A DNA stretch of 13,375 bases from a virus. A model generated the notes under the pieces. It made no database searches and was not told the DNA's origin. It was given only the letters and a program-made list of their open reading frames with translations. The translations under genes and the position numbers were made by a program. The DNA lies in the IMG/VR virus record IMGVR_UViG_3300012983_001730; one strand, 5' to 3'. Below, one piece after another: positions 6,556 to 12,323 of this stretch. Each line of letters begins with the position of its first letter. The first letter of the stretch is position 1.

Positions 6556-7347
6556 TTAGAAATGCCAATGATAATTGTCGTTACGACCTTCGGCGCGAGG
6601 GCCAGGCAAGTTAATGCATTTCTTGTGTTCATTTCTTGCGTGACGCTGGCTCATATTGCGCCAAGTGTCGACGTCCGGGATAATGTCCAGAAGCAGATAA
6701 TCATCAATCTGGTCATAGGTTACGCCCATATTATCCTCGTCAGTCTGACCAGTCATACCATCCGCAGGCGCCTTATCAACCAGGTGACGAGGAATCTCCT
6801 TCATTGCACGACCCATCATGAGAACTTCACGAACAGTCAGCTCCTGGAATAGATGGAAGTCGCCGGCGAGATCGCCATACTTGGTGGTGTAACCAATCCA
6901 ACCCTCGGACCAGTTACCAGTATTGACTACACGACCTCCATAAATTGCTGCGATAGCATATAGAGTTACCATACGCATACGAGCAGGAACATTTGTACGA
7001 ACAGCAGGAATTTCGCAATCGCCGCGACCTACGCAGCCATAAAATGCATCAACTGCAGGCTCGATATTGATTTCATCATACTTGATACCAAGAGCCTCGC
7101 AGACTTCATAGGAATGCGCGATGTCTGCCTGAGTGCCACAAGGCATCAATACGCCGTGAACCCTGTCTGCGCCCAGTGCTCGGACAAGCAGGGCGGCCGC
7201 AATTGTAGAATCTTTACCACCGGAAATACCGATGATAGCCTTGGTCTCAGGACCAGCATTTTTCACGAAATATTTACGAATCCACTCAACAGTGTACTCA
7301 ATCTGATATTTGGGGTCAAATTCCCACTTTCTCTTATCCTTACCCAT
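6556..7347 (-). CDS. nadE: NH3-dependent NAD+ synthetase (NadE, PP-loop ATP pyrophosphatase).
   Basis: PP-loop GISGGKDS is present. The length (263 aa) and overall pattern match single-domain NadE. The ribosome-binding site GGAGGA is 8 nt upstream of the ATG at 7347. The stop of the macrodomain gene is 1 nt upstream. Confidence 0.85.
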   Translation of the reverse strand: MGKDKRKWEFDPKYQIEYTVEWIRKYFVKNAGPETKAIIGISGGKDSTIAAALLVRALGADRVHGVLMPCGTQADIAHSYEVCEALGIKYDEINIEPAVDAFYGCVGRGDCEIPAVRTNVPARMRMVTLYAIAAIYGGRVVNTGNWSEGWIGYTTKYGDLAGDFHLFQELTVREVLMMGRAMKEIPRHLVDKAPADGMTGQTDEDNMGVTYDQIDDYLLLDIIPDVDTWRNMSQRHARNEHKKCINLPGPRAEGRNDNYHWHF

Positions 7348-7348
7348 T

Positions 7349-7852
7349 TCACTTTCCTCCGTTATAATGAACGATATAGACTACATAGTCTTCATCAAAA
7401 ACTTCTCGAATCATAGCTTCGATTACATTCCAGTTTGCGCCACCACGGTCACAGCCAATCAGATAAGGAAAACCGATTGTAGAACCTTTAGGAAGAACCT
7501 GCTTAAGATTGTTCAAACAAATCCAAAACGCATCATAGGAAGTGTAACGCTTGCCATCATAACCATAGTTATTCTGTGCAAACATATTGCAGACATGCTG
7601 ATGTTTAATGTCTTTCATAAAGTCCTCATACAGAGGAACGAGCTGAACATCACCGAGCATCATATTGACACCAGTTGTTACCATTGCATCATATTTTGCT
7701 CGATATGCGTCATAAACTTGCGGATAGGTATCGCGAATCTGCTTCGCGATACCAGACGCCATTTTGCCCTGACAATTCACCTGATGGCAAATCACATCAA
7801 GATTCATGTCTTTCTGTACTTTGAGTAAGTCACCAGGCATATGAACTATCAT
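7349..7852 (-). CDS. Macrodomain protein of the TARG1/OARD1/DarG-like class (ADP-ribose binding, de-ADP-ribosylation or O-acyl-ADP-ribose deacylase).
   Basis: PGDLLKVQKDMNLDVICHQVNCQGKMASGIAKQIRDTYP parallels the TARG1 N-terminal signature GDLF…D…HC.S.D..MG.GIA..F. I took the start at the third ATG (7852), which gives GGAGGT-6 nt-ATG and a TAATG overlap with the nadV stop. The ORF-track start at 7858 has a ribosome-binding site too close. Confidence 0.7.
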   Translation of the reverse strand: MIVHMPGDLLKVQKDMNLDVICHQVNCQGKMASGIAKQIRDTYPQVYDAYRAKYDAMVTTGVNMMLGDVQLVPLYEDFMKDIKHQHVCNMFAQNNYGYDGKRYTSYDAFWICLNNLKQVLPKGSTIGFPYLIGCDRGGANWNVIEAMIREVFDEDYVVYIVHYNGGK

Positions 7853-9324
7853 TAGCATACCTCCGGATAAAGATTTGCACGAATCTGCTGGAAAGTCTGC
7901 AGATTGTAGTACTGACCATCCTTGTAGATAGTCTTCATAACAGTGAGATTGTCACCAACCCACTCAGAGAAACCATCAATGCACTCGAAAGTGCCATCGG
8001 GATGCTTCTGAACCATGCAGCAACCCTTCTGAGACTTCTTCAGTCCACCAACGTCGGTCTTAGGGTCCTTGTAGATAGGAACTTCCTTGCCACCGAAGAC
8101 ACCATAGGTAGCCTTCATAGCCATACCCCAAGTATCACGAGTCAGAACAGTGAACTTGTTATCCGGGCTGAACAGAGCGTGGAAGCAGAAGGCGCCAACG
8201 CCGAAGACCACATTAGTAGAAGCAAAGCCCAGCTTTTCGAGGGACTCATAAATCTGCTCAACGCGATTCAGAGTGCAGCCATCACCGTAAATCAGACCAA
8301 TGTGAGGGTCAAGAACCTTATAGCCAGCGGCATTGATAGTGCCACCGAAAACATCCCACAGCTTCTGAATAGTGCCAACGGAGATAGCAACCATGTCGCC
8401 GGAGTCAGGACGAATGAGCAGCTTGCCATTGTGGGCGAGAATTTCGTCCTTGCAAGCAGGGATAATATTGTTTACCATATTCCAGTAGTCATAGGTATCA
8501 GATACCATAGAGAAACTGGTGTTAGGATAGATTTCAGTCAACATACGCTTTACGAAAGTGATTTCATCGCCGTCGATCGCGTAGTTAGCAGCCATAACAG
8601 AGTGCTCAGTAGAAACGGCACCAACGCCAATCTTGTGCTCTGCACAATTAGCATAGTAGTACTCGTCCAAATAAGGTAGAGCAGGAATAGTGGAAGTCTT
8701 ATTGAAAGACAGGAGCCAAGAAGCAGAGCAACGAGTTGCATCTTCCAGGCAGCTCATACCACGGAAACCGAAGTCAGCCATTGCCATATAAGGGTCGGCG
8801 CCAGGAGCAGTCTGAGAGTAGAACTTCTCAGCAACCTTGTGATATTCCCAACCTACGGTCGCATATGCGCACATAGGCCACACTTCAGTCTGGAGCAGGC
8901 ACTCAAGCCACTGAATGACCCAAGCGAAACGAGGGTGAGTATTGCGCATCTCAACCAGAGGAATTCCCATATTGATTACAGAACCCTCGGGAATTGCGCG
9001 GATTTCTACAGGCAGGTAGCCCAGTTCATGTAGTTCGATGATACGGTCTCGCGCCACATTGCCAAGACCAAGGTGGGCATCGATGTAATGGTCATATTCA
9101 TACATAACCTGTTCGATGGTTTCATAGAAGAACTCTTCAAAGCCCTTCTGCATATCCATAATGAAAGGCTGAATACCATAAACAACCATCTTAGGGAAGT
9201 TGTCATTCATTGCCTTTCGAGCAGTCAGATAAGATACCAGATACTCCTGGTTATCGGGATACATCAGAGGGTGGCACTGCTTATAAGAGTCACTGTACAG
9301 CATAATCATCTTACGAAAATTCAT
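7852..9324 (-). CDS. nadV: Nicotinamide phosphoribosyltransferase (NAMPT / NadV family).
   Basis: LYSDSYK N-terminal motif; FGFRGMS; MVSDTYDYWN; LLIRPDSGD; GYKVLDPHIGLIYGDG; KDPKTDVGGLKKSQKG. These align position by position with human/bacterial NAMPT (VVSDSYDIYN, LIIRPDSGNP, GYKLLPPYLRVIQGDG, KDPVADPNKRSKKG). The ribosome-binding site AAAGGAGAT is present. Confidence 0.9.
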   Translation of the reverse strand: MNFRKMIMLYSDSYKQCHPLMYPDNQEYLVSYLTARKAMNDNFPKMVVYGIQPFIMDMQKGFEEFFYETIEQVMYEYDHYIDAHLGLGNVARDRIIELHELGYLPVEIRAIPEGSVINMGIPLVEMRNTHPRFAWVIQWLECLLQTEVWPMCAYATVGWEYHKVAEKFYSQTAPGADPYMAMADFGFRGMSCLEDATRCSASWLLSFNKTSTIPALPYLDEYYYANCAEHKIGVGAVSTEHSVMAANYAIDGDEITFVKRMLTEIYPNTSFSMVSDTYDYWNMVNNIIPACKDEILAHNGKLLIRPDSGDMVAISVGTIQKLWDVFGGTINAAGYKVLDPHIGLIYGDGCTLNRVEQIYESLEKLGFASTNVVFGVGAFCFHALFSPDNKFTVLTRDTWGMAMKATYGVFGGKEVPIYKDPKTDVGGLKKSQKGCCMVQKHPDGTFECIDGFSEWVGDNLTVMKTIYKDGQYYNLQTFQQIRANLYPEVC

Positions 9325-9342
9325 ATCTTAAATCTCCTTTTC

Positions 9343-9879
9343 TTATTCAAAATCGCCTTTGATATCAACTTCAATGTCATTCGGAATAATATCCGCTGCG
9401 CCTTGAACTTCTTCAAAGACGCGATTTAAGTAGCCGTCAATTGCAGCTTCGAATTCAGATTCTGTACAATCTTCTGAAACTCCAACTTCACTCGGCTCAA
9501 AAGTGAATAGATAAGTTACTGACACATAGGCTTGTTTCTTCATCTTAGGCTTCCTTTCTGCATGACCGCAGGTAGCAACTGCTTCGGCATCGCCAGGACA
9601 TCTCTGAGTGCCGCAACGACTACAAAATTCCTTTTGAAAATATTCAATCATATGAGGTTGAAGAATATATTGCTTTTTGCCATCAACCCATTTCCAAAAG
9701 AAGCGACCAGAGCGAGGATAGCAGAAATTGGGATTTTCAAAATCCGCTTTTACATTGGACTGTGCTACTGGTAAACCGGGTGACCACGGCCACCAACCAA
9801 TAGGCACGAAATCAATTCCATCAGCTTCTGGGCATTTCGCCCATTCTTTCTCCCAAAATTCATTCATTGTATACACCAT
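9343..9879 (-). CDS. Hypothetical Trp/Cys-rich protein (178 aa) co-transcribed immediately upstream of nadV.
   Basis: The ORF is clean. The N-terminal half is Trp-rich (WEKEW, GWWPWSPG, FFWKW). A Cys cluster CSRCGTQRCPGD…CGHAE suggests metal binding. I recognise no family. There is a weak ribosome-binding site (AAGGAAAG). Confidence 0.6.
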   Translation of the reverse strand: MVYTMNEFWEKEWAKCPEADGIDFVPIGWWPWSPGLPVAQSNVKADFENPNFCYPRSGRFFWKWVDGKKQYILQPHMIEYFQKEFCSRCGTQRCPGDAEAVATCGHAERKPKMKKQAYVSVTYLFTFEPSEVGVSEDCTESEFEAAIDGYLNRVFEEVQGAADIIPNDIEVDIKGDFE

Positions 9880-10048
9880 TCTTTCCTTCTTTGTAGTACC
9901 CAGCGCATCTCAACTTGCTGAGAGGGACGGGTTTATGGTCTGAGAAATATAAGGTTCCCTTATCAGACACTCTATACTTGGCTACCTCTTGGGTGCCATC
10001 TTTGTAAATTAACAATAACTTTTTGCCTTTAATAAAGTGCTGATGCAT
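9860..10048 (-). CDS. Small hypothetical protein (62 aa), leader gene of the nadV operon.
   Basis: Good ribosome-binding site (AAAGGAGAAAAGCC-ATG). It lies ~38 nt downstream of the predicted transcription start site of the promoter at 10099-10127. It overlaps the next gene's start by 20 nt in another frame. Confidence 0.45.
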   Translation of the reverse strand: MHQHFIKGKKLLLIYKDGTQEVAKYRVSDKGTLYFSDHKPVPLSKLRCAGYYKEGKNGVYNE

Positions 10049-10098
10049 GGCTTTTCTCCTTTTCTCTTGTTTTTTCTCTTTCCTTACTTTCTATATAT

Positions 10099-10127
10099 AT
10101 TATAACATATTTTTATTAAAAAATCAA
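10099..10127 (-). promoter_or_regulatory. Copy 3 of the conserved promoter cassette (TTGATT-17 nt-TGT-TATAAT).
   Basis: TTGATT at 10127..10122 and TATAAT at 10104..10099. It is followed by ATATATATA and an AAGTAAGGAAAG leader. It is fused to the terminator at 10120-10152. Confidence 0.65.
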
Positions 10128-10152
10128 AGAAGCCCTATTTGCATAGGGCTTC
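10120..10152 (-). terminator. Rho-independent terminator after the lipoprotein gene.
   Basis: Perfect 10-bp stem GAAGCCCTAT (10129-10138) / ATAGGGCTTC (10143-10152) with loop TTGC. On the minus strand it is followed by TTTGATTTTTT. Confidence 0.7.
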
Positions 10153-10164
10153 TCTATCTTTTCT

Positions 10165-10680
10165 TTATTCAAAAGTAATGGACAGCTCGTCCGTACGATA
10201 GAGCTCATTCCAATCAGCGTCATAAATTGCCAATTTAAAGGCAATTTTATCAATGCTTTCTGTAATGTTATTGCGGTCAAGGTCTTCCTTCATAAACGAG
10301 AAGGTTTCATTTGCCTTTTTACCTTCCGCAATTTCAATCGTGAAATAAGGGTCAATCATACAGTCATTAACCGAAGTCTCGACCATGGCAACATAGATTG
10401 TCTTATCTGTTGGGTTTTCAACATAAACATCAACAGTATAAGCATCCCAGAAGTCGTCACGATAAGGTTTACTTGTTACTTTGAAGATGACACGGTCATT
10501 AGAAACCAAAGTAACAGGATTAAAAACGACTTCGTCCACAGCAGTCTCATCCTCGGAAGGGTCAACAGTTTCGGAAATCGAAGTGTCCGGCTCGGTTGTG
10601 TCAGGAGCAGGGTCGCCCGCACAGGCAACCAAGCTGAAACACATACACAGAGCCAAAATCAAAGCCAAAAACTTTTTCAT
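10165..10680 (-). CDS. Secreted lipoprotein (signal peptide plus lipobox LVAC), function unknown.
   Basis: MKKFLALILALCMCFSLVAC-AG is a classic type II signal peptide with Cys20. The following segment is acidic and Thr/Pro-rich, then there is a beta-rich domain. Confidence 0.75.
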   Translation of the reverse strand: MKKFLALILALCMCFSLVACAGDPAPDTTEPDTSISETVDPSEDETAVDEVVFNPVTLVSNDRVIFKVTSKPYRDDFWDAYTVDVYVENPTDKTIYVAMVETSVNDCMIDPYFTIEIAEGKKANETFSFMKEDLDRNNITESIDKIAFKLAIYDADWNELYRTDELSITFE

Positions 10681-10697
10681 TTGGTTCAGTTCCTTTC

Positions 10698-11471
10698 TTA
10701 AATAATCTCAATCAGTTCATTCTGAGCATTTCCAGGGAAGATGCTATTGGTAGTGAAAATCTTCTCTACCAGACCAGAATTCACCAAATCTCCATTGAAA
10801 ATAGTCATCTCACAGTGAGTGACATAGAGATAAACCTTTGCTGCGCCAGCGTCCTTGAGAGCCTTAGCAGTATGGTAGAAAGTGCCACCACGAGAGCAGA
10901 TATCGTCAACAATCAGAACATTCTTGCCAACAACTACATCGGGATGCATGAGGTCCAGACCCTCAATCTTACCATCTGCCCAATTACGACGCTTCACGCC
11001 GAAGGAATAAGGCTTGCTGACCATACCAGAGTAGCGCTTCATTGCGCCCTCGTCAGGGTAGCACATAACCAGATTTTCGTCTGCAATCTTCTCAATTACA
11101 GTTTCGATATGGGCCTGCGCAGATACAACCTGCACATTATCCAGAAGAGCCTCGCACACATTGGAATGAGGGTCTTCGATGTACACAGCAGCAAATCCCA
11201 GGTCATTGATGGTTTCGCAGAAATACTTCAGCGTAAACACATCAGTAGGAGCCTTAACCCGGTCCATACGAGCATGAGGGCAGTAAGGCATATACAGGCT
11301 CAGAGGAAGGTGCTGATAATGCTTGCGGATGCAGATGATGGTAAACAGCTCGGCATCATTCTCATAGTTCCAGATTACCAGACCGTTTTCCAGCTGCTCT
11401 GGCAGATGCATGAGCAGAGTATTGTCGGGATAAGAAAGCTGGTCAATTACAACATTTCCAATTCGAATCAT
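10698..11471 (-). CDS. prs: Ribose-phosphate pyrophosphokinase-like protein (Prs / PRPP synthetase family), a short divergent form. It could be the Adps-type ADPR pyrophosphokinase of the NARP1 pathway.
   Basis: The PRPP-binding loop VLIVDDICSRGGTF is present. MPYCPHARMDR matches the Prs IPYFGYARQDR pattern, and EDPHS matches the VDLHA region. At 257 aa it is ~60 aa shorter than canonical Prs. The ribosome-binding site AAAGGAGAAG is present. Confidence 0.8.
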   Translation of the reverse strand: MIRIGNVVIDQLSYPDNTLLMHLPEQLENGLVIWNYENDAELFTIICIRKHYQHLPLSLYMPYCPHARMDRVKAPTDVFTLKYFCETINDLGFAAVYIEDPHSNVCEALLDNVQVVSAQAHIETVIEKIADENLVMCYPDEGAMKRYSGMVSKPYSFGVKRRNWADGKIEGLDLMHPDVVVGKNVLIVDDICSRGGTFYHTAKALKDAGAAKVYLYVTHCEMTIFNGDLVNSGLVEKIFTTNSIFPGNAQNELIEII

Positions 11472-11472
11472 A

Positions 11473-11661
11473 TTACTTCTCCTTTATCAATCTACTATAA
11501 ACTTCTTCGATTCGGTCGCTATCTTCCCATCCCATCTGCCTATATGCAGCCAATCTCAATATTGCACAATACTTTTTGAAATTTTGCTTTGCATATATGA
11601 AGAGGGATGGGGAGTAAGGAATATCGTTTTGCTTTAGAAAAGCAATTTGTTCATCATTCAT
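11473..11661 (-). CDS. Small hypothetical protein (62 aa), translationally coupled between pncA-like and prs-like.
   Basis: ATGAATGA overlap with the upstream stop. TAAT-ATG junction with the downstream start. I recognise no domain. Confidence 0.5.
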   Translation of the reverse strand: MNDEQIAFLKQNDIPYSPSLFIYAKQNFKKYCAILRLAAYRQMGWEDSDRIEEVYSRLIKEK

Positions 11662-12226
11662 TGATAACCTTAATCTGGCAAGACTTCATAGTTTCCAGAG
11701 CTGCCAGATGACGCTCGGGAGTAACACCGGCGCAGCAACTTGCGTCAACAGTTACCTGCACTTCAGGACAGTAAGCCTTAATCAGCATCGCATTGGAAAC
11801 AACGCAGATATCGGTGCAAACGCCCATGAGGATAACCTCGTCGATAGGATTGTCGGGGAGAATGTCGCGGATAATTTCAGCCAGGCGAATAGAACCAAAG
11901 GTATTCTTGAGAACGCGGCTCTTCATAATGTCCTTAGCAGAGTAGAAGCAGAAATTGCTACCATAGTCCACAACGCTGGAAATCTGCTTATTGATGCTCC
12001 AGCCCGGGGTGCCCTCGATACAGTGGGGAACAGGCAGGTTCTTACCCTCCTGGGTATCCATATAGTCAGCGTAATGGGTGTCCTTGGTGAACATAATCAG
12101 ATTGTCACCGGCGTTCAGTTCTTTCAGACGCTCCACCATTACAGGAACGATTGCCTGAGCCTCAGGACTGCCTAGAGCGCCGTCGATGAAATCATTCTGC
12201 ATATCAACTACAACAATAACTTTCAT
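11654..12226 (-). CDS. pncA: Nicotinamidase/pyrazinamidase PncA (isochorismatase-family cysteine hydrolase).
   Basis: VIVVVDMQNDF (catalytic Asp). TKDTHY…PVPHCIEGTPGW parallels the M. tuberculosis PncA metal site TKDFH…PPHCVSGTPGADF. The catalytic Cys is in GVCTDICV. The ribosome-binding site AAAGGAG is present. Confidence 0.8.
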   Translation of the reverse strand: MKVIVVVDMQNDFIDGALGSPEAQAIVPVMVERLKELNAGDNLIMFTKDTHYADYMDTQEGKNLPVPHCIEGTPGWSINKQISSVVDYGSNFCFYSAKDIMKSRVLKNTFGSIRLAEIIRDILPDNPIDEVILMGVCTDICVVSNAMLIKAYCPEVQVTVDASCCAGVTPERHLAALETMKSCQIKVINE

Positions 12227-12260: not shown

Positions 12261-12289
12261 ATTATAACATATATTTTATAAAAAATCAA
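12261..12289 (-). promoter_or_regulatory. Copy 4 of the conserved promoter cassette (TTGATT-17 nt-TGT-TATAAT).
   Basis: TTGATT at 12289..12284 and TATAAT at 12266..12261. It is followed by ATATATATA and an AAAGTAAGAAAAGGAG leader. It is fused to the terminator at 12280-12311. Confidence 0.65.
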
Positions 12290-12311
12290 GGGCGAGGTTT
12301 TACCCTCGCCC
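12280..12311 (-). terminator. Rho-independent terminator after the right-edge coiled-coil gene.
   Basis: Perfect 8-bp GC-rich stem GGGCGAGG (12290-12297) / CCTCGCCC (12304-12311) with loop TTTTAC. On the minus strand it is followed by TTGATTTTTT. Confidence 0.7.
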
Positions 12312-12323
12312 TCTATCTATCTC

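Follow-up and report, generated by a model that had tools for sequence, protein, structure and literature searches.

A Candidate Deamidated Variant of the NARP1 Pathway Encoded by a Metagenomic Virus

Introduction

How can NAD+ be rebuilt by a phage that encodes a nicotinamidase together with a transferase of the nicotinamide-using NAMPT family? The question is raised by a gene module in IMG/VR virus record IMGVR_UViG_3300012983_001730, a stretch of 13,375 nucleotides that was analyzed as a whole and is called the window below. A first-pass annotation, made from the letters alone, had proposed five proteins of NAD+ metabolism (PncA, a Prs-like protein, a NAMPT-like protein, a macrodomain and NadE), and all five were recovered by family or profile searches:

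11654..12226, minus strand: PncA-type nicotinamidase, 190 aa (PF00857)
10698..11471, minus strand: Adps-family protein with the Prs fold, 257 aa (PF14572 and PF00156)
7852..9324, minus strand: Namat-like transferase of the non-Asp (Ser-type) clade, 490 aa (PF04095 and PF18127)
7349..7858, minus strand: Adpp-like macrodomain protein, 169 aa (profile match to macrodomain structures)
6556..7347, minus strand: NH3-dependent NAD synthetase NadE, 263 aa (PF02540, TIGR00552)

The module had been placed at positions 7349-12226, which is correct for four of these genes; NadE lies just outside. The Prs-like and NAMPT-like proteins had further been proposed as a pair of the NARP1 type. NARP1 is defined by Adps, a clade of the Prs family that pyrophosphorylates ADP-ribose (ADPR), with a Namat gene within 10 genes of it (10.1101/2024.02.11.579819). 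This proposal stands in part: membership in the Adps clade, membership in the Namat superclade and the proximity of the two genes were found, but the nicotinamide-binding Asp, the SCH motif and the SCL residue of Namat were not. The balance of the evidence tips slightly towards the window encoding a deamidated variant of NARP1 with an associated phosphatase, whose intermediates would be ADPR pyrophosphate (ADPR-PP) and nicotinic acid adenine dinucleotide (NaAD).

The Pyridine Pocket of the Transferase

The residue that binds nicotinamide is an Asp in human NAMPT (D219) and in the Namat of SpbetaL1 (D215). In the window transferase, it is Ser211. Its surroundings are changed as well: K209 is found at G217 (human numbering), A183 at H191, G235 at S241 and S238 at A244, the Ala242 of SpbetaL1. 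When 89 unique sequences of the non-Asp clade were compared with 83 unique Namat and Nampt sequences of the Asp/Glu type, only twelve positions discriminated cleanly between the two groups. Among these twelve, the non-Asp clade has Gly, Ser or Ala at H191, Asn or Lys at G217, Ala or Ser at D219, Gly at S241, Ser at A244, Leu at I309 and Gly at S165.

Several of these positions have a known role. In human NAMPT, one wall of the tunnel for nicotinamide is made up of H191, G217, D219 and Y188, the D219-H191-water-Y188 network requires a Gly at 217, and S165 packs onto the 380 helix, the equivalent of SCH (PMC4186856). D219 is described as the determinant of nicotinamide specificity (PMC7096376, citing Khan et al.), and human NAPRTase has a Ser at this position (PMC7096376, PMC4442680). 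In SpbetaL1 Namat, D215 hydrogen-bonds nicotinamide, and the D215A exchange leads to an 8-fold lower activity (PMC12774641).

The window pocket has lost the negative charge at 219; it has gained Lys209 two positions before this site and, in the place of the Ala, Ser238, as would be expected if a carboxylate replaced the amide. Judged from these residues, the pyridine substrate of the window transferase has probably switched to nicotinate, a change that the first-pass annotation had not foreseen. The pocket change argues for nicotinate and is silent on the ribosyl donor.

Gene Neighbors of the Two Pocket Types

Related loci were collected in three sets. The viral set contains 98 loci on 96 distinct contigs (17 found via Adps, 80 via the transferase and one GenBank record), with a classifiable transferase in 97 loci from 95 contigs. 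The control set consists of 80 viral loci found with canonical Namat, and the third set of 80 loci from bacteria or metagenome-assembled genomes (MAGs), with mixed residues at the D219 position. The collection is not exhaustive; it amounts to at least 95 distinct contigs from viruses and more than 50 from bacteria or MAGs.

The pocket type is strictly linked with PncA and NadE. Among the 97 classifiable viral loci, the D219 position is Ser in 29 and Ala in 68, and the equivalents of SpbetaL1 Asp215 and Ala242 are Ser or Ala and Ser, respectively, in all 97. PncA and NadE are both present within 10 kb in 87 of the 98 loci, and in each of the remaining 11 the contig stops on the side on which the absent gene would lie; the grouping of the genes is, therefore, not due to chance. 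The control loci have Asp (67) or Glu (13) at this position in 80 of 80, and nearly all combine Ala244 with an uninterrupted SCH (one locus gives a partial match). Adps is adjacent in 77 of these 80 loci, whereas PncA and NadE are each found in none. Since several contigs of the control set share a metagenome with Ser/Ala contigs, this contrast is not an effect of habitat.

In the bacterial and MAG set, 52 loci carry PncA, Adps and NadE; the transferase is of the Ala type in 50 of them, of the Ser type in one and unclassifiable in the last (L237). Of the 14 bacterial loci of the Asp type (Chitinophagaceae, Tenacibaculum, Paenibacillus and others), 12 carry Adps and none carries PncA or NadE. 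Tight operons of four or five genes are seen in L076, L066, L036 and L081: PncA, Adps, transferase and NadE are contiguous in L076 (8578 to 12240), and the compact operons of L036 and L081 include the macrodomain. The first-pass annotation had taken the presence of PncA and NadE as a sign of a deamidated, non-canonical route, and both the active-site and the co-occurrence data point there.

Assignment of the Transferase

The best solved relatives of the NAMPT-like protein are the structures of SpbetaL1 Namat (9W5X and 9W5W, at 1e-100), with human NAMPT at about 1e-52. The Namat superclade is split from Nampt (human, KVP40-like ValKK3, Mx1 and RTH11) at 100% bootstrap, and the window transferase falls within the non-Asp clade, which is monophyletic at 100% and sister to canonical Namat. 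The catalytic core is kept (D12, Y14, F185, R188, H241, R305 and D307), as are the motif IYGD (not IQGD) and the F392-equivalent of the adenine clamp; the GGGLLQ helix is absent. Three ORFs separate its gene from that of Adps, which is inside the 10-gene range of NARP1, and relatives have the two genes side by side or overlapping. By descent and by position, the protein was thus rightly proposed as the NARP1 partner of the Prs-like protein.

Namat is recognized by three features, the SCH signature GS-X-phi-X-phi-X-phi-TRD, the stacking Arg40 of the SCL and the nicotinamide-binding Asp215 (PMC12774641). The SCL stacking residue can be Arg, Lys or Tyr, at the third position of the loop. In the window transferase, the SCH motif is broken by an insertion of 10 aa (GVGAFCFH[ALFSPDNKFT]VLTRD); the Phe at position 3 is kept and the aromatic residue at position 7, the Y396-equivalent, is lost. 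The equivalent of Arg40 is Met39, which does not vary within the Ser-type subclade; the Arg is retained in the Ala-type subclade. Because these defining features of Namat were tested and found to be missing, the module is not a canonical NARP1.

Other forms of the protein were seen in the collection. Namat-like proteins of 573-649 aa are encoded in L010-L017, L021, L049 and L050, with either a large insertion after RGDSGDP, at the same place as the insertion in the Namat of Bas63, or a C-terminal extension. In 13 control loci (a subset of L161-L192), Namat has Glu at the D219 position and KSRD in the place of TRD, and is paired with Adps, without PncA and NadE. A divergent subgroup (L104, L106, L107 and L110) has the pocket motif KTAT and the clamp AGGFSM; PncA, transferase and NadE are contiguous, and an Adps-like gene, only 24-28% identical, lies about 3 kb downstream.

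Assignment of the Prs-Like Protein

The Prs-like protein appears, with good support, to belong to Adps and not to housekeeping Prs. It misses the cut-offs of the NCBIfam Prs models (TIGR01251, 99 bits for a cut-off of 113; NF002095, 73 for 296; NF002320, 68 for 297), and the Adps of FADO, validated in vivo, misses the Prs equivalog cut-offs likewise. In BLASTP, it scores 100-124 bits to the Adps of FADO, Bas63 and Ceto, versus 56 bits to E. coli Prs. In neighbor-joining trees (300 bootstraps), the window lineage and the validated Adps of Bas63, FADO and ICP1 form a clade with 100% bootstrap, from which the class I Prs of E. coli, B. subtilis and human and the archaeal class III Prs are excluded. 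The result was the same in a second tree limited to tool-derived sequences.

The signatures of the Adps family come from the structure of ICP1 Adps (PMC13586617). In the window protein, the acceptor residues R68, H102, D140, D189 and D190 and the catalytic hairpin Lys (K160) are retained, and the Adps-specific residues I169 and C192 of the donor site and F198 of its lid are present. It ends before alpha11-alpha12, so that the C-terminal module is gone, and the N-terminal helix is missing, too. Two further departures from the ICP1 signatures are Ser193 for D216 and Lys73 for F92. The PP loop, DDICSRGGTF, is of the type DD(I/L)(C/S)S.GGTF, common to the Adps of FADO and of Paenibacillus NARP1. 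Compared with Adps and bona fide Prs, the protein thus sides with the former, and the earlier suspicion that it is not a housekeeping Prs is borne out. The Adps partner of the non-Asp transferases is unchanged relative to that of canonical NARP1 and is almost always adjacent to the transferase.

Two other criteria were considered and set aside. The exchange of D216 for Ser was rejected as a mark of changed function, because the in-vivo-validated Adps of FADO, Paenibacillus-type Adps and archaeal Prs also carry Ser. PHROG 619 was dropped, as it fails to separate Adps from Prs (193 bits for E. coli Prs, 218 for the window protein), and the trees and signature residues were used instead.

PncA, NadE and the Macrodomain

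The PncA-like protein matches PF00857 at E = 4.9e-24, and its best solved relatives are the PncA of P. horikoshii (1ilw, 5e-15) and of M. tuberculosis (3pl1, 3e-10). Residues D8, K98 and C141 align to D10, K94 and C133 of 1ilw, and D49, H51 and H68 to D52, H54 and H71, which we take to be the Asp-Lys-Cys triad and the Asp-His-His metal site, respectively, of the P. horikoshii structure. NadE matches PF02540 at 9e-51 and TIGR00552 with 167 bits (cut-off 64), and contains the SGGxDS motif. Its closest solved structures are those of Francisella NadE (3fiu, 3e-32) and an archaeal NadE (2e18, 4e-30). The positions that presumably set the substrate preference of the Francisella enzyme gave a mixed picture in the window NadE, and no claim is drawn from them.

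A single-sequence Pfam search with the macrodomain protein gave no match. A profile of this protein and eight relatives, however, gave full-length matches to BT1257 (1e-19), TARG1/OARD1 (1e-12) and Poa1p, the ADPR-1''-phosphatase of yeast (1.7e-12). It is 32% identical (E = 1e-12) to a macrodomain encoded between Adps and Namat in the Vibrio phage Ceto, and both are placed in PHROG 335 ('phosphatase'). The arrangement in Ceto is that of the NARP1-AP system, in which the macrodomain protein Adpp turns the ADPR-1''-phosphate of the RES defense into ADPR (10.64898/2026.01.28.702374). The window gene overlaps the stop codon of the Namat-like gene, which is inside the two-gene range of NARP1-AP. 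By analogy, the macrodomain most likely converts ADPR-1''-phosphate to ADPR. About half of the related modules carry such a macrodomain, which makes sense only if ADPR is a substrate.

Proposed Route and Alternatives

The route would start with a host immune NADase, cleaving NAD+ to nicotinamide and ADPR (or ADPR-1''-phosphate). The macrodomain would strip the 1''-phosphate where needed, Adps would convert ADPR and ATP to ADPR-PP, and PncA would turn nicotinamide into nicotinate. The Namat-like enzyme, which lacks the amide-reading Asp network, would then join nicotinate and ADPR-PP to NaAD, and NadE would finally convert NaAD to NAD+. The module may, in this way, serve the phage against NAD-depleting defenses.

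Several observations speak for ADPR-PP as the ribosyl donor: the unchanged and almost always adjacent Adps, the retained IYGD and F392-equivalent (with the Arg40-equivalent in the Ala-type subclade), the macrodomain in about half of the modules, and a basal branch found in cultured Clostridium. The transferase of this branch combines an Ala/Ser pocket with a fully canonical, uninterrupted Namat adenine clamp (IGSYTYQYNTRD). Since the pocket is changed and the clamp intact in this branch, the pocket change preceded the SCH insertion and arose in an enzyme that was, by its sequence, still a user of ADPR-PP, the donor predicted here for the insertion-bearing clade as well. The gene order in this branch is Adps-PncA-transferase-NadE (L246-L259). 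In C. sartagoforme, the operon (L254, 8631-13114) is followed by a regulator of the NrtR type (NUDIX and NrtR winged helix) and sits between ordinary chromosomal genes on a 1.5-Mb contig. NrtR responds to ADPR.

Several observations weigh against this reading. The SCH insertion, the loss of the Y396-equivalent and Met39 make the use of ADPR-PP less certain than in the Clostridium branch. A nicotinamide mononucleotide (NMN) adenylyltransferase (NMNAT) of the NadM type, with the motif GRFQxFHxGH, is encoded within 10 kb in nine of the 98 related loci (L009, L019, L034, L037, L048, L049 and L051-L053) and in none of the 80 controls, pointing to a mononucleotide as the intermediate in some phages at least; once the window's own contig lineage is set aside, L034 and L009 are its nearest relatives. 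The closest solved relative of the window NadE, that of Francisella, is an NMN synthetase that prefers nicotinic acid mononucleotide (NaMN). The non-Asp state has a single origin in the tree. The association of the pocket with PncA and NadE therefore counts as one event and not as repeated convergence; the clade that has retained it is deep, with subclades at 40-45% identity. Moreover, three full-length Clostridium loci are without a nearby NadE or PncA.

Part of this evidence would suit a mononucleotide route of the Preiss-Handler or Francisella type, which we hold to be unlikely. In such a route, PncA would supply nicotinate and the transferase would combine it with phosphoribosyl pyrophosphate (PRPP) to NaMN. 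Either host NadD or phage NadM would then form NaAD for NadE, or NadE would form NMN for NadM. The disrupted SCH clamp of the window clade, the NadM-like genes and the Francisella enzyme as the best solved relative of NadE speak for it, the pocket change is compatible with either donor, and Namat uses PRPP in vitro when ADPR-PP is absent (10.1101/2024.02.11.579819; PMC12774641). Against it stand the position of the Prs-like protein, nested among validated Adps with the Adps donor-site lid kept, and the preprint assay in which SpbetaL1 Adps had no Prs activity (10.1101/2024.02.11.579819). Furthermore, Adps adjoins the Namat-like gene in essentially every module, macrodomains are frequent, and the adenine clamp is intact in the basal Clostridium branch. 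In 89 of the 98 loci, no NMNAT is found within 10 kb, and the compact operons are without one.

NARP1 and NMNAT have been reported as not co-occurring in phages. The first-pass annotation had seen no NMNAT (NadM, NatV or NadD) in the window, and this holds: Pfam searches on all ORFs and tblastn with NadM-like queries were empty. Nor was one found in positions 162,497-186,111 of a near-identical contig of 191,974 bp, the stretch that was searched.

A second alternative concerns the purpose, not the chemistry, and is compatible with all routes. The module could serve general NAD+ recycling or boosting instead of counter-defense, recovering ADPR and nicotinamide from the NAD consumers of the phage or the cell itself (such as Tpt1 RNA repair, ADP-ribosyltransferases or NAD-dependent ligase). 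Tpt1 consumes NAD+ and yields ADPR-phosphate species. The phage module does lie beside genes for an RNA ligase, Tpt1/KptA, Thg1, a Pnkp-like kinase, phosphoesterases and NADAR, and, in Clostridium chromosomes, the four genes stand beside NrtR among ordinary chromosomal genes. Nevertheless, NARP1 and NARP1-AP have been shown in experiments to counter SIR2, TIR, SEFIR and RES NADases (10.1101/2024.02.11.579819; 10.64898/2026.01.28.702374), and the module occurs widely among large phage contigs that look virulent. We consider recycling in place of counter-defense rather doubtful.

Canonical NARP1 with a phosphatase, forming NAD+ from nicotinamide and ADPR-PP while PncA and NadE merely boost the host's Preiss-Handler flux, is quite improbable: Adps, the Namat homologue and the macrodomain do agree with the operational definitions of NARP1 and NARP1-AP, and a survey of gut jumbo phages reports, solely from annotation, assorted NAD synthesis genes, among them pncA, nadE and NAMPT (PMC11662467), but it leaves unexplained why all Namats linked with PncA and NadE are without the nicotinamide-binding Asp and all unlinked ones keep Asp or Glu, D215A cuts the activity of SpbetaL1 Namat (PMC12774641), PncA would compete with the transferase for nicotinamide, and NadE would be left without a phage-made substrate.

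Transcription Units and Neighboring Genes

All substantial ORFs of the window are on the minus strand. Besides the five genes listed above, the region of the module contains:

12261..12313, minus strand: terminator-like hairpin and promoter-like site 5' of PncA (consensus match only)
11473..11661, minus strand: 62-aa ORF between PncA and Adps, kept only in the closest relatives (L006-L009)
10165..10680, minus strand: predicted lipoprotein, 171 aa, with N-terminal signal and Cys lipobox
10099..10156, minus strand: hairpin with 14-bp stem and T-run (10156-10125), then TTGATT-17-TATAAT (10127-10099) (consensus match only)
9860..10048, minus strand: 62-aa ORF (orf62b), no match in Pfam or PHROG
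9343..9879, minus strand: 178-aa ORF (orf178) with a Cys-rich stretch, no match in Pfam, PHROG or NCBIfam
6492..6554, minus strand: hairpin with 16-bp stem directly 3' of NadE, then promoter-like site (consensus match only)

The combination of a hairpin with T-run and TTGATT-17-TATAAT (extended TG) occurs in three minus-strand copies in the window. A scan of the window gave 14 terminator-like sites versus 4.4 +/- 1.9 in shuffled sequence. The triplet looks like a terminator-promoter cassette that is reused between gene blocks. It would fit a first unit of PncA-orf62-Prs-like-lipoprotein and a second of orf62b-orf178-NAMPT-like-macro-NadE. The two adjacent operons of the first-pass annotation agree with these three elements, which are consensus matches only.

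The 62-aa ORF at 11473..11661 gave no match in Pfam and PHROG searches. In the same databases, the sole family match of the lipoprotein is a signal-peptide-like PHROG. The lipoprotein gene is missing in relatives beyond L006-L008, where the Namat-like gene directly follows Adps; it is probably an insertion into the module, outside the pathway. Homologues of orf178, 38-47% identical, are found a few kb from the module in L010-L017. It is only in the lineage of the window itself that the three ORFs (lipoprotein, orf62b and orf178) stand between Adps and the transferase. RyR-domain (RyDEP-like) proteins were sought among the small ORFs of the module by Pfam, and none was found. PADLOC was uninformative, giving only weak matches to DarG-macro and a PRTase motif.

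The module is flanked by a Pnkp-like AAA_33 kinase and two calcineurin-like phosphoesterases (4287-4928, 4867-5373 and 5730-6440). The neighborhoods of L037-L081 contain RNA ligases, Tpt1/KptA, Thg1, a poly(A)/CCA polymerase head domain, HD and NADAR proteins, which constitute an RNA-repair set. Elsewhere in the window, a protein with the 'shoulder' domain of the major vault protein (PF11978, 2.5e-27) is encoded at 12324-13334, an SPFH/flotillin protein of 510 aa, whose long coiled region is rich in Ala, Glu and Lys, at 2439-3971, and a 412-aa fusion of a PIN domain and a PhoH-like ATPase at 257-1495. The GC-rich, repeat-like coding sequence of the flotillin gene gives rise to long spurious antisense ORFs, e.g., 2409-4043 on the plus strand.

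Source Lineage and Host

A megablast search of the region against 50,697 phage records gave no match; the lineage of the window is known from metagenomes only. Three viral contigs of IMG/VR, among them the near-identical 191,974-bp contig, encode the Prs-like protein with 100% identity; a separate look-up of the exact protein gave contigs of 9.2 kb at most. The nearest matches in the bacterial collection are MAG contigs labeled Acutalibacteraceae, Ruminococcus and Lachnospiraceae, and the host is, hence, likely a gut member of the Clostridia.

Significance and Comparison with Known Systems

The evidence is, in our judgment, evenly balanced on a wider proposal, namely that the Ser/Ala clade catalyzes an undescribed reaction, nicotinate + ADPR-PP to NaAD, within a self-contained deamidated NAD+ pathway, with or without the macrodomain. 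Nicotinate use by Namat is not described in the searchable literature, the coverage of which is incomplete, so that an earlier description elsewhere is possible. In the same literature, NARP1 is not treated together with NadE, and with nicotinic acid only in the NARP3 paper.

If true, the deamidated pathway would be common in large phages of gut Clostridia and would also form a chromosomal, NrtR-linked recycling operon in Clostridium. The chemistry of ADPR-PP would then not be restricted to phages, and phages would adjust it to the host's pyridine economy. As the known NARP1, NARP1-AP, NARP2 and NARP3 all use amidated pyridines, this would add a new enzyme reaction and a fourth logic of counter-defense, via nicotinate and NaAD. 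It would also give a rule for sorting database entries named 'nicotinamide phosphoribosyltransferase', by Asp/Glu versus Ser/Ala at D219 and by PncA and NadE as neighbors. The module is frequent in gut metagenomes and bears on Lachnospiraceae and Ruminococcaceae phages facing NAD-depleting immunity, as well as on the traffic between nicotinamide and nicotinate in the gut. The Clostridium operon beside NrtR offers a cultivable system for this chemistry.

With NARP1, as known from SpbetaL1, Bas63, FADO and ICP1, the window module shares the joint presence of Adps-clade and Namat-superclade genes, the conserved catalytic residues and the predicted chemistry, i.e., a pyridine base displacing the pyrophosphate of ADPR-PP. 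It differs in that its transferase belongs to a sister clade, with Ser211 in the place of the nicotinamide-binding Asp, the H191-G217-D219 network replaced, a 10-aa insertion in SCH and Met for Arg in SCL. Moreover, PncA and NadE are obligate partners, Adps and the window transferase are separated by three unrelated ORFs, and the predicted product is NaAD, not NAD+. NARP1-AP, described as Adps-Adpp-Namat in the Vibrio phage Gary, has a counterpart in the Poa1p/TARG1-class macrodomain that adjoins the window transferase and for which a phosphatase role is predicted. The gene order is Namat-like then macrodomain, versus Adps-macrodomain-Namat, and the likeness was measured against the Ceto protein (32%).

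Phage-encoded restoration of NAD+ is common to the window module, NARP2 (Nampt and NMNAT, as in KVP40) and NARP3 (PnuC and NadR, as in Bas30). Unlike in NARP2, the transferase falls outside the Nampt clade (100% bootstrap) and the window has no NMNAT, with NadM-like genes near nine of the 98 related modules. Unlike in NARP3, PnuC and NadR-like Pfam families are absent among the window ORFs. The Preiss-Handler pathway (PncA, PncB, NadD, NadE) has the same first and last enzymes and would share the penultimate compound, NaAD. PncB and NadD are absent from the window, and their two steps are predicted to be replaced by Adps and a single ADPR-transferase step in which the ADPR moiety is used again. 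Finally, the pocket recalls the difference between human NAMPT (D219) and NAPRTase (S214), where Asp is found in the amide user and Ser in the nicotinate user; the window transferase has Ser. In contrast to that pair, which belongs to two distantly related families (NAMPT and NAPRT), the switch seen here lies within the NAMPT/Namat family and is accompanied by the additional changes at H191, G217, S241 and A244.

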